This document shows positions 1 to 40,477 of a stretch of 64,000 nucleotides of DNA, piece after piece. The notes beneath the pieces were generated by a model. That model was not told where the DNA came from and did not search any database. It saw nothing but the letters and a program-made list of their open reading frames with translations. Source of the stretch: Escherichia coli (GTDB lineage Bacteria; Pseudomonadota; Gammaproteobacteria; Enterobacterales; Enterobacteriaceae); the NCBI RefSeq assembly GCF_044324785.1, contig NZ_CP172127.1. One strand, 5' to 3'. Both the position numbers and the translations under genes were made by a program. How positions within the stretch are numbered: the stretch's first letter is position 1; the number at the start of each line of letters is the position of its first letter.

Positions 1-198
1 TTTGATATGCCTTGCTTTAGTATCCGTCAATACTGCCATACGCTAATTCCTGTTACTCTGGTATGCCATTCAGTATGCCATTAGTCTCTCACTTCACTAA
101 GAATACATTAGATAACATCGGACAGAAAAAATTGTAATGCATTGTTTATAATAAGGTTATATAACACTCCCGGATTAAGTCAGATTTATTTCAGGCGG

Positions 199-254
199 TC
201 CCCCTCACCGCCATATTTAAAGAAAAGCTCGTACGAAAGTACGGGCTTTTTTTT
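199..254 (+). repeat. Direct repeat copy A: degenerate tRNA-Ser 3' end (tCCCCCTCACCGCCA) followed by hairpin (agctcgtacgaaagtacgggct) and T8 run
   Basis: Read directly; near-identical module recurs at 374-433. Only 5 C in the C-run versus 7 in copy B. Confidence 0.6.
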
Positions 255-373
255 CGCATATTGCACTCCAGGGGGGATGAGAAGCCCCGACCGGGGTTCG
301 ACAACTGGCGCAGCCAGTTGGACAGACCACGAACGCAGTGAGTGGGCTGCCCGCAGGGCGAGCGAAGCGAGTC

Positions 374-433
374 TATCCCCCCCTCACCGCCATATTTAAA
401 GAAGAGCTCGTACGAAAGTACGAGTTTTTTTTC
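374..433 (+). repeat. Direct repeat copy B: exact 3'-terminal ~18 nt of tRNA-Ser(GGA) (ATCCCCCCCTCACCGCCA) followed by rho-independent terminator hairpin and T8 run
   Basis: 3' acceptor/CCA end matches the serW/serX tRNA-Ser end as I remember it; upstream 70 nt do not resemble a tRNA body (no GGTGAGG 5' acceptor strand, no T-loop). Confidence 0.6.
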
Positions 434-610
434 GCATTTTATCTGCCTGTACGGCAGTGAACTCAAATACTACACGTTTAGTCCGTTATTAATAAAGCAA
501 AGCCATCTCATTTTCCTGCTACCACCCTTTTTTATCCTTACCTTCCCGCAGCACTAATTATCAACAACTTACCATCATCATCAAAAAAAGGGTCTGAACC
601 TCCTCCACCC

Positions 611-651
611 CATAAACAAAAAGTCCGTAACCTCTTTCGAGATTACGGACT
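611..651 (-). terminator. Rho-independent terminator of clpA
   Basis: Hairpin agtccgtaa...ttacggact just past the clpA stop, followed on the minus strand by a T-rich tract. Confidence 0.6.
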
Positions 652-675
652 TCACCAACCTACCTAACAATTAGA

Positions 676-2952
676 TTAATGCGCTGCTTCCGGTTTGTGC
701 TTTTGCGCACTCTGGAATCCGTAAGTCAGCTCATTTTTCTCTTTATCCAGCGCGACGGTGACCTGACCGCCGTCCACCAGCGAACCAAACAGCAGTTCGT
801 TGGCGAGCGGTTTTTTCAGGTTGTCCTGGATGACACGCGCCATCGGACGTGCGCCCATTGCCCGATCGTAACCTTTCTCGGCCAGCCAGTTACGCGCTTC
901 CTGGCTCACTTCCAGAGAAACACCTTTCTGATCCAGCTGAACCTGCAACTCGACGATGAATTTATCCACCACCTGATGGATCACGTCGGTTGACAGATGA
1001 TCGAACCAAATAATGTTGTCGAGACGGTTACGAAACTCCGGCGTAAAGATCTTCTTGATCTCTTCCATCGCATCGGTGCTGTTATCCTGGTGGATAAGAC
1101 CAATCGATTTACGCTCAGTTTCCCGTACCCCGGCGTTGGTGGTCATCACCAATACCACGTTACGGAAGTCCGCTTTGCGTCCGTTGTTATCGGTCAGCGT
1201 ACCGTTGTCCATCACCTGCAACAGAATATTGAACACGTCCGGGTGCGCTTTCTCGATTTCGTCCAGCAGCAGCACCGCATGTGGATGCTTGATGACCGCA
1301 TCAGTCAGCAAACCGCCCTGATCAAAACCAACGTATCCCGGAGGCGCACCAATCAGACGGCTGACGGTATGGCGTTCCATATACTCGGACATATCAAAGC
1401 GCAGAAGCTCAATGCCCAAAGCTTTCGAAAGCTGTACCGTCACCTCTGTTTTCCCGACCCCGGTAGGGCCGGCAAACAGGAACGAACCGACCGGTTTATG
1501 TTCGTGACCTAAACCTGCACGCGCCATCTTAATGGCTTCAGTCAGCGCCTCAATGGCTTTATCCTGACCGAAGACCAGCATTTTCAGGCGATCGCCGAGG
1601 TTTTTCAGGGTATCGCGGTCACTCTGAGAAACACTCTTCTCTGGAATGCGCGCAATACGGGCCACCACGGACTCAATATCCGCCACATTAACGGTTTTCT
1701 TGCGTTTGCTTACCGGCATCAGGCGTGCGCGAGCGCCCGCTTCGTCGATAACGTCAATGGCTTTATCCGGCAGATGACGATCGTTAATGTATTTCACCGC
1801 CAGCTCTACCGCTGCACGCACCGCTTTTGCGGTATAACGCACGTCGTGGTGCGCTTCATACTTCGGTTTCAGGCCATTGATGATTTGAACAGTTTCTTCG
1901 ATCGACGGTTCAGTAATATCAATTTTCTGGAAGCGACGCGCCAGAGCACGGTCTTTCTCGAAAATGTTGCTGAACTCCTGATAGGTTGTCGAACCAATTA
2001 CGCGAATTTTACCGCTGGAGAGCAACGGTTTGATTAGGTTAGCCGCATCGACCTGGCCACCAGACGCTGCACCCGCACCGATAATGGTGTGGATCTCATC
2101 AATAAACAGGATGCTGTTAGTGTCCTGCTCCAGCTGCTTGAGCAACGCTTTAAAACGTTTTTCAAAGTCGCCGCGATATTTTGTGCCCGCTAACAGAGAA
2201 CCGATATCGAGAGAGTAAATCGTACAGTCAGCCATCACTTCCGGCACATCGCCCTGAACAATTCGCCAGGCAAGACCTTCCGCAATCGCGGTTTTACCGA
2301 CACCAGATTCCCCCACCAGCAGCGGGTTGTTTTTACGGCGACGGCAGAGAACCTGAATAGCACGCTCCAGCTCCTTCTCACGACCAATCAGTGGGTCGAT
2401 TCCGCCCACACGCGCAAGCTGATTCAGGTTCGTCGTGAAATTCTCCATACGTTCCTCCCCACCAGCTTGTTCTTCGCTGTTTGGCTGGCTGCCAGGATCA
2501 GAAGACTGTGTCGGCTCGTCTTTACGCGTGCCATGAGAGATAAAGTTCACCACATCGAGACGGCTGACTTCATGTTTACGCAACAGATATGCCGCCTGCG
2601 ACTCCTGTTCGCTAAAGATAGCGACCAGAACGTTTGCACCGGTAACCTCATTGCGACCGGAGGACTGGACATGGAAGACCGCACGTTGCAGTACACGCTG
2701 AAAACTCAGCGTCGGCTGTGTGTCGCGCTCCTCTTCACTGGCAGGCAGAACGGGTGTGGTTTGTTCAATAAAGGCTTCCAGTTCCTGACGGAGCGCAACC
2801 AAATCCACAGAACACGCTTCCAGCGCCTCCCGGGCAGATGGGTTACTGAGCAGCGCCAGTAACAAGTGCTCGACGGTCATAAACTCATGACGGTGCTCGC
2901 GCGCTCTGGCGAAAGCCATATTTAAACTGAGTTCCAGTTCTTGATTGAGCAT
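676..2952 (-). CDS. clpA: ATP-dependent Clp protease ATP-binding subunit ClpA (758 aa)
   Basis: Two AAA+ modules with Walker A motifs GESGVGKT and GPTGVGKT; start [10 protein letters not shown] as in K-12 (ORF track extends 5 codons upstream). Confidence 0.96.
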
Positions 2953-2982
2953 AGGCACCTCCCCCAATTTTTATGCCTGCAT

Positions 2983-3303
2983 TCAGGCTTTTTCTAGCGT
3001 ACACAGCAATGGATGCTCATTCTCCCTCGCGTACTTGTTCACCATCGCCACTTTGGTTTCTGCAACCTCGGCGGTAAAGACTCCGCAAATGGCCTTCCCC
3101 TGGTAGTGAACAGCGAGCATCAATTGCGTTGCACGTTCTACATCATAAGAAAAGAATTTTTGTAACACGTCAATAACAAACTCCATCGGAGTGTAATCAT
3201 CATTGACTAATATCACTTTATACATAGATGGCGGTTTTAGCGCGTCGCGAACTTTTTCTTCCGCCAGTTGATCAAAGTCCAGCCAGTCGTTCGTTTTACC
3301 CAT
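2983..3303 (-). CDS. clpS: Clp adaptor protein ClpS (106 aa)
   Basis: 106-aa ORF immediately upstream of clpA in the same orientation; sequence [13 protein letters not shown]... Confidence 0.95.
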
Positions 3304-40379: not shown

Positions 40380-40458
40380 GCCACTGCTTTTCTTTGATGT
40401 CCCCATTTTGTGGAGCCCATCAACCCCGCCATTTTGGTTCAAGGTTGGTGGGTTTTTT
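40380..40458 (+). ncRNA. rybB: RybB small regulatory RNA (sigma-E dependent, Hfq-binding; ~79 nt)
   Basis: GCCACUGCUUUUCUUUGAUGUCCCCAUUUUGUGGAGCCCAUCAACC... ending in a terminator hairpin and U6; located between ybjL and rcdA as in K-12. Confidence 0.88.
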
Positions 40459-40477
40459 GTTATCTAAAATTTATCTA

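Follow-up and report, generated by a model that had tools for sequence, protein, structure and literature searches.

The window analysed here, a stretch of 64,000 nucleotides from Escherichia coli, is 98-99% identical to many E. coli genomes. Its orientation is reversed relative to K-12, and clpA lies on the minus strand within an ORF at 676-2967. Between the left edge and clpA, at the position of the tRNA-Ser gene serW, we found the start of an integrase gene, a predicted attachment site, two copies of the serW trailer with its terminator hairpin and, between these, an RtT element (Table 1). No recognisable tRNA was present, in agreement with a preliminary description of this DNA: ARAGORN called no tRNA genes in positions 1-3000 or in the whole 64-kb window, and the Rfam tRNA model RF00005 had no match in 1-3000 at E ≤ 1.

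Table 1 Features at the clpA-proximal end of the window
Feature	Position	Strand	Basis or remark
Tyrosine integrase, first 13 codons MAVLTDTKARHIK	1-39	-	Translation; aligns to the annotated integrases of M159-1 and EDL933; remainder lies left of the window
Two direct copies of GTATGCCAT(T)	61-82	+	Putative arm-type integrase binding sites of the att site
Predicted attR: arm GGCGGT (194-199) and 14-bp core CCCCCTCACCGCCA (200-213)	194-213	+	Alignment of attL, attR and attB; arm and core identical in EDL933
Native serW trailer and intrinsic terminator (stem 227-234/239-246, T8 247-254)	214-254	+	Aligned to the trailer directly after serW in IAI39; severed from serW by the island
RtT element, tRNA-Ser(GGA)-linked subtype	255-392	+	RF00391 match; Ser-type model R1; conserved fold
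RtT inverted T-arm copy	268-287	+	
RtT closing stem P1	271-278/375-382	+	Name coined here
RtT second stem P2	281-287/293-299	+	Name coined here
RtT direct copy of tRNA positions 50-58, GGGGTTCGA	293-301	+	
RtT further hairpins	302-320, 323-349, 350-358, 362-368	+	
RtT direct copy of tRNA positions 59-76	375-392	+	
Second serW trailer and intrinsic terminator (stem 406-413/418-425, T8 425-432)	393-440	+	Terminator scan (399-432); K-12 serW trailer alignment

Two direct repeats had been described at this position, each consisting of a tRNA-Ser 3' end, a hairpin and a T8 run. These are real but slightly wider than first given (200-262 and 379-440): positions 200-253 and 379-432 are 94% identical over 54 nt, the match extends to 262 and 440, and the two copies are offset by 179 bp. 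Copy B, the one closer to clpA, contains the exact serW terminus ATCCCCCCCTCACCGCCA at 375-392 and aligned base for base with the 3' end and trailer of K-12 serW, a locus at which K-12 has serW without RtT. Copy A has only the 14 nt of CCCCCTCACCGCCA in common with the serW 3' end. The tRNA end that had been called degenerate in this copy is tRNA sequence over these 14 nt, and its left part, GGCGGT, is island DNA. The hairpin of copy A (227-246) was read directly in the sequence; the terminator scan of the plus strand did not call it. The segment between the repeats is GC-rich, with G6 at 271-276, C7 at 377-383 and the short hairpins named before.

The window contains 39 nt of the integrase gene; what lies beyond, namely the body and far end of the island and the intact serW, was read in relatives whose junctions are ~95-97% identical. 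Full-length homologues of the integrase are encoded at the equivalent position in M159-1 and O157:H7 EDL933, and the homologue from M159-1 contains the Pfam domains Arm-DNA-bind_3, Phage_int_M and Phage_integrase. Alignment of attL, attR and attB revealed that attL and attR have exactly 14 bp in common, CCCCCTCACCGCCA, which are the last 14 nt of serW, and at attR the motifs GGCGGT and ACCGCC form an inverted repeat that flanks CCCCCTC. The sequence GTATGCCAT occurs just twice in the 64-kb window, both times at 61-82. M159-1 has exactly four copies in 49.9 kb, two by attR and two by attL, a number reached in none of 100 shuffles, and the repeats are probably arm-type integrase sites. Taken together, the 14-bp core of attL and attR, the assignment of GGCGGT to the island and the location of the GTATGCCAT copies at the att sites indicate, on sequence grounds, that copy A is the live attR of a serW-integrated island and no excision scar.

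The far ends of the M159-1 and EDL933 islands carry an intact tRNA-Ser and infA, and a tRNA 3'-end repeat is present at both island ends. In the window's genome, too, the serW tRNA is probably moved to the far end of the island and not lost; an apparently missing tRNA at the edge of a window is, in this case, an island junction. The preliminary description had instead considered an att-site scar, that is, an element that integrated into serW and was later excised, so that the tRNA 3' end was duplicated and the tRNA body lost or replaced. Two tRNA 3'-end copies and no tRNA in the window are what such an event would leave behind, but the integrase gene still adjoins attR with its start at position 39, islands that are still resident lie behind homologous junctions and have an intact serW at their opposite end, and copy B together with the middle segment is also found in IAI39, which is free of the island. 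We regard a scar as highly improbable.

Two observations were made at the borders of the junction. In M159-1, a hairpin and T-run terminator of the island itself (AAGCGCATGTTAttgtTTAACATGCGCTTTTTT) directly follows the reconstituted serW at attL (L004:41800-41967); the native serW terminator is stranded at attR and the island-borne one takes its place at attL. At 435-462 on the minus strand, the window has a single type I-F CRISPR repeat (GTTCACTGCCGTACAGGCAG..), matched by CRISPR-DR4 with 29.7 bits (cutoff 35). A CRISPR4.1-2 array is known between clpA and infA (PMC3903273), and the repeat is a remnant of this array that has lost the spacer in the window; at the same spot, two repeats with one spacer are present in each of K-12, EDL933 and M159-1, and three repeats in IAI39.

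The middle segment was identified by a covariance scan against Rfam. The RtT model RF00391 aligned from end to end (model positions 1-130 of 130) with 256-392, at 43.9 bits and an E-value of 1.5e-6. This is 1.1 bits under the curated gathering threshold of 45 bits, which is an operational cutoff and no biological feature, and the copy is absent from gathering-mode output. The copy at the same locus in IAI39, which differs by 2 nt, scored 45.1 bits and the copies at K-12 serX 46.3 bits. Ser-linked RtT units are annotated in some RefSeq genomes of E. coli and unannotated in several others, and this uneven annotation fits scores (43.9-46.3 bits) that straddle the Rfam threshold. A second covariance model, R1, was built from 14 Ser-linked units from K-12 serX and other genera, with the copies of the window and IAI39 left out. 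It matched 255-392 at full length with 149.4 bits and an E-value of 2e-39, the sole R1 match in the 64 kb. The consensus fold of 16 Ser-type units, the window copy included, has 35 pairs, 11 of them with compensatory changes, as in CCAC/GUGG in the window (327-330/342-345) versus CCGU/GCGG in K-12 serX. Folded as a single sequence, the window RtT reached -57.2 kcal/mol with a z-score of -2.3. As expected of an RtT unit (a repeat of ~178-181 bp with the last 18-19 nt of the upstream tRNA at its end), the window unit has a spacing of 179 bp and ends in serW positions 59-76; it comprises the segment 255-392 and is closed by the rest of copy B (393-440). The upstream tRNA itself is present in the island-free allele of IAI39.

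Weak Rfam matches to MicC (153-262), the Thr leader (188-255) and the Leu leader (362-431) were rejected. They scored 41 bits (cutoff 90), 28 bits (cutoff 55) and 22 bits (cutoff 50), respectively, and are spurious since they rest on terminator hairpins. The sole Rfam family above its gathering score in the window was the RybB sRNA (40383-40461, plus strand, 104.8 bits).

The middle segment had been discussed as an unusual structured RNA. Structured it is, but it is not unusual: it belongs to RF00391, and PGAP labels this locus 'RtT sRNA' in other E. coli, among them IAI39 and M159-1. A non-canonical tRNA or tRNA-like gene of 120 bp in place of serW, which had also been left open, is improbable in the extreme. 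The segment does end in an authentic acceptor 3' strand with GCCA and contains GGTTCGA, but neither ARAGORN nor the Rfam tRNA model finds anything, an acceptor 5' strand, a D arm and an anticodon arm are missing, and the element adjoins a normal tRNA-Ser in IAI39 and K-12.

A scan of 100,044 species genomes with a pattern of the core motifs gave at least 120 loci. Among the matches listed, 103 units have at their end 12 nt or more of the 3' terminus of a tRNA, namely the one that lies closest upstream on the same strand. This tRNA was Tyr-GTA for 60 units and Ser-GGA for 39, and one unit each, again among the matches listed, was linked to Arg-CCG (L114:861-1002), Arg-ACG (L088:167-305), Cys-GCA (L028:7254-7392) and Ser-GCT (L106:2186-2323). 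Those units among the matches listed that are linked to neither Tyr nor Ser(GGA) are probably from non-enteric Proteobacteria, and at least one of them, L028, is from a metagenome-assembled genome of this group. L028, L088, L106 and L114 each have the 3' end and T-stem sequence of their own tRNA, and the unit of L088 is without the 5' strand of the closing stem P1. Other loci among the matches listed are from Marinobacterium, Pseudoalteromonas and Mariprofundus. Some of the Ser-linked units or arrays (L037, L042, L091, L110 and L031; Enterobacter, Pluralibacter and others) include one unit with the end ...AATCCCCCCC|GGTGC..., in which the acceptor 3' strand is replaced directly after the T-stem; this may be a further recombination junction.

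The first 20 nt of RtT are reverse-complementary to tRNA positions 50-69 except at the centre, where GATTCGAA has become GATGAGAA (TC to GA in the T-loop). Of the 13 positions that vary between tRNAs, a unit shares on average 10.2 with its cognate tRNA and 7.1 with non-cognate tRNAs. From this reverse-complementary 5' end and the cognate matching, RtT can be read as an inverted T-arm copy, CGAYY, a copy of positions 50-58 (GGTTCGA), a hairpin insert and a copy of positions 59-76, the insert that splits the two direct copies being 60-75 nt long. Given the TC-to-GA change in this inverted copy, the conserved motif GAUGAGAA is a modified antisense T-loop. The four T-stem-derived strands of RtT could also form an alternative fold with two T-arms. 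The T-arm architecture was seen for at least six tRNA types (Tyr, Ser-GGA, Ser-GCT, Arg-CCG, Arg-ACG and Cys) in several proteobacterial orders, and the literature on tRNA-linked repeats yielded no usable description of it. That RtT units represent a general class of modules templated on the tRNA T-arm, beyond enterobacterial tyrT, is a speculative idea which we consider rather doubtful. If it were true and such a class undescribed, either an active copying or conversion mechanism would keep the unit matched to its tRNA, or selection would favour an RNA that imitates the T-arm and acceptor end of the cognate tRNA or pairs with them.

Four alleles of the serW-clpA locus aligned cleanly. K-12 has serW only (infA - serW - trailer/terminator - clpA). 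IAI39 has serW and RtT (infA - serW - trailer/terminator - RtT core - last 18 nt of serW - trailer/terminator - clpA). EDL933 has an island without RtT (clpA - trailer/terminator - 14-bp core - island arm - integrase - 87-kb island - serW - infA), and in the window and M159-1 an RtT unit is added to the EDL933 layout. The presence of RtT does not depend on the island, the RtT structure is conserved, and integration took place at the 14-bp core. An RtT unit at the serW-clpA locus was found in 1025 of 5426 complete E. coli genomes, and the island arm followed directly by the RtT unit, at serW or serX, in 740 of the 5426. An earlier tally of 212 genomes with island plus RtT was discarded since O157-type junctions without RtT also pass 80% coverage. 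With RtT at this locus in about a fifth of E. coli genomes, the combination of the window, a serW-island attR followed by an RtT repeat unit, is ordinary and already known.

The variable presence of the unit between strains and the direct repeats of tRNA 3' end and trailer that flank it might also suggest a decayed miniature integrative element or its footprint, with att-like tRNA 3' ends; the inverted T-arm copy at the 5' end would then give a palindromic DNA architecture, and the unit would be a DNA relic that yields no functional RNA. However, units occur in tandem and are identical, compensatory changes keep the internal hairpins across genera, and one architecture tracks six different tRNAs. 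Moreover, a search with a chimeric query of the RtT 3' end and the island attL arm found in none of the 5426 genomes the junction that would arise if this island family used the 14-bp core within RtT as a second attB; in this search the island attL arm always adjoined the tRNA itself. A relic of this kind is thus very unlikely, and RtT is regarded here as a common, conserved and structurally constrained element.

In sum, positions 1-440 of the window are very probably the clpA-proximal end of an island integrated at the 3' end of serW, followed by an RtT repeat unit that was linked to serW before the island arrived. We propose that the tyrosine integrase of the island recombined attP with the last 14 bp of serW, and that integration carried the tRNA body and infA to the far island end. 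The clpA side would then consist of the island arm, the 14-bp core and the original serW trailer with its terminator, which is copy A. The recipient chromosome would already have had one 179-bp unit downstream of serW, made up of the RtT core, the last 18 nt of the tRNA and, again, the trailer and terminator, which is copy B. An integrase-mediated origin, as first proposed for the duplicated tRNA ends, holds in this model for copy A, which would stem from recombination at serW; copy B and the 120-bp segment are a resident RtT unit that also occurs free of the island (IAI39; K-12 serX). Duplications of tRNA 3' ends beside tRNA genes are not always att scars.

Within the RtT RNA, the inverted T-arm copy at the 5' end would pair with the direct copies of the T-arm and 3' end. 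In island-free strains, RtT may be co-transcribed with the tRNA by read-through of the terminator, and processing of the tRNA 3' type would release it. Each Ser-linked RtT unit has an intrinsic terminator before it. In this strain, the island would cut RtT off from the serW promoter, and a scan upstream of the window RtT found no promoter-like site on the plus strand. Since the unit also sits between two terminators, RtT is probably silent here. Gain and loss of RtT units may occur by unequal recombination between the direct repeats of 64-66 bp.

The closest known relatives of the window unit are the RtT units of the tyrT-tyrV operon, of which K-12 has four. Repeats of 178 bp in this operon were described by Bosl and Kersten (1991), as cited in PMC3318445, and according to the same citation rtT from tyrT is made by read-through and trimmed like a tRNA 3' end. 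RtT RNAs were detected by RNA-seq in Klebsiella (PMC4147364), and a role in the stringent response has been proposed for RtT. Downstream of serX, K-12 has four tandem RtT units of 181 bp, each with its own terminator and each labelled 'RtT sRNA' by PGAP. Like the tyrT-tyrV units, the window unit (~179 bp) lies downstream of a tRNA in the same orientation and ends in the last 18-19 nt of that tRNA, and it shares the core motifs GAUGAGAA, GGUUCGA and CCCGNAGGG as well as the closing stem; the Rfam model is matched at full length. Unlike these, it is linked to tRNA-Ser(GGA) instead of tRNA-Tyr, and all T-stem-derived segments are Ser sequence. In Ser-linked units, moreover, the hairpin region in the middle is longer and every unit contains an intrinsic terminator; they score about 44-46 bits with RF00391 versus 133-137 bits for the tyrT copies, and the window unit is parted from its tRNA by the island.

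A close counterpart of the junction is the serW island of O157:H7 EDL933. It agrees with the window, fully or almost fully, in the arm on the integrase side, the 14-bp core and the trailer, and its layout is clpA - attR - integrase - island - serW - infA. EDL933 is without RtT between attR and clpA, where the window has it. The same arm and 14-bp core bound islands of 41.6 kb in M159-1 and 87 kb in EDL933, with different cargo. The islands integrated at serW and serX in O157:H7 are known as O-island 43/48 and SpLE1. The domain set of the M159-1 homologue, a core that is the tRNA 3' terminus and the putative arm-type repeats in both arms resemble those of other integrases with an Arm-DNA-binding domain that use a tRNA 3' end as attB, presumably the P4-like class. 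In contrast to these, the predicted integrase is encoded here at the island end distal to the intact tRNA.
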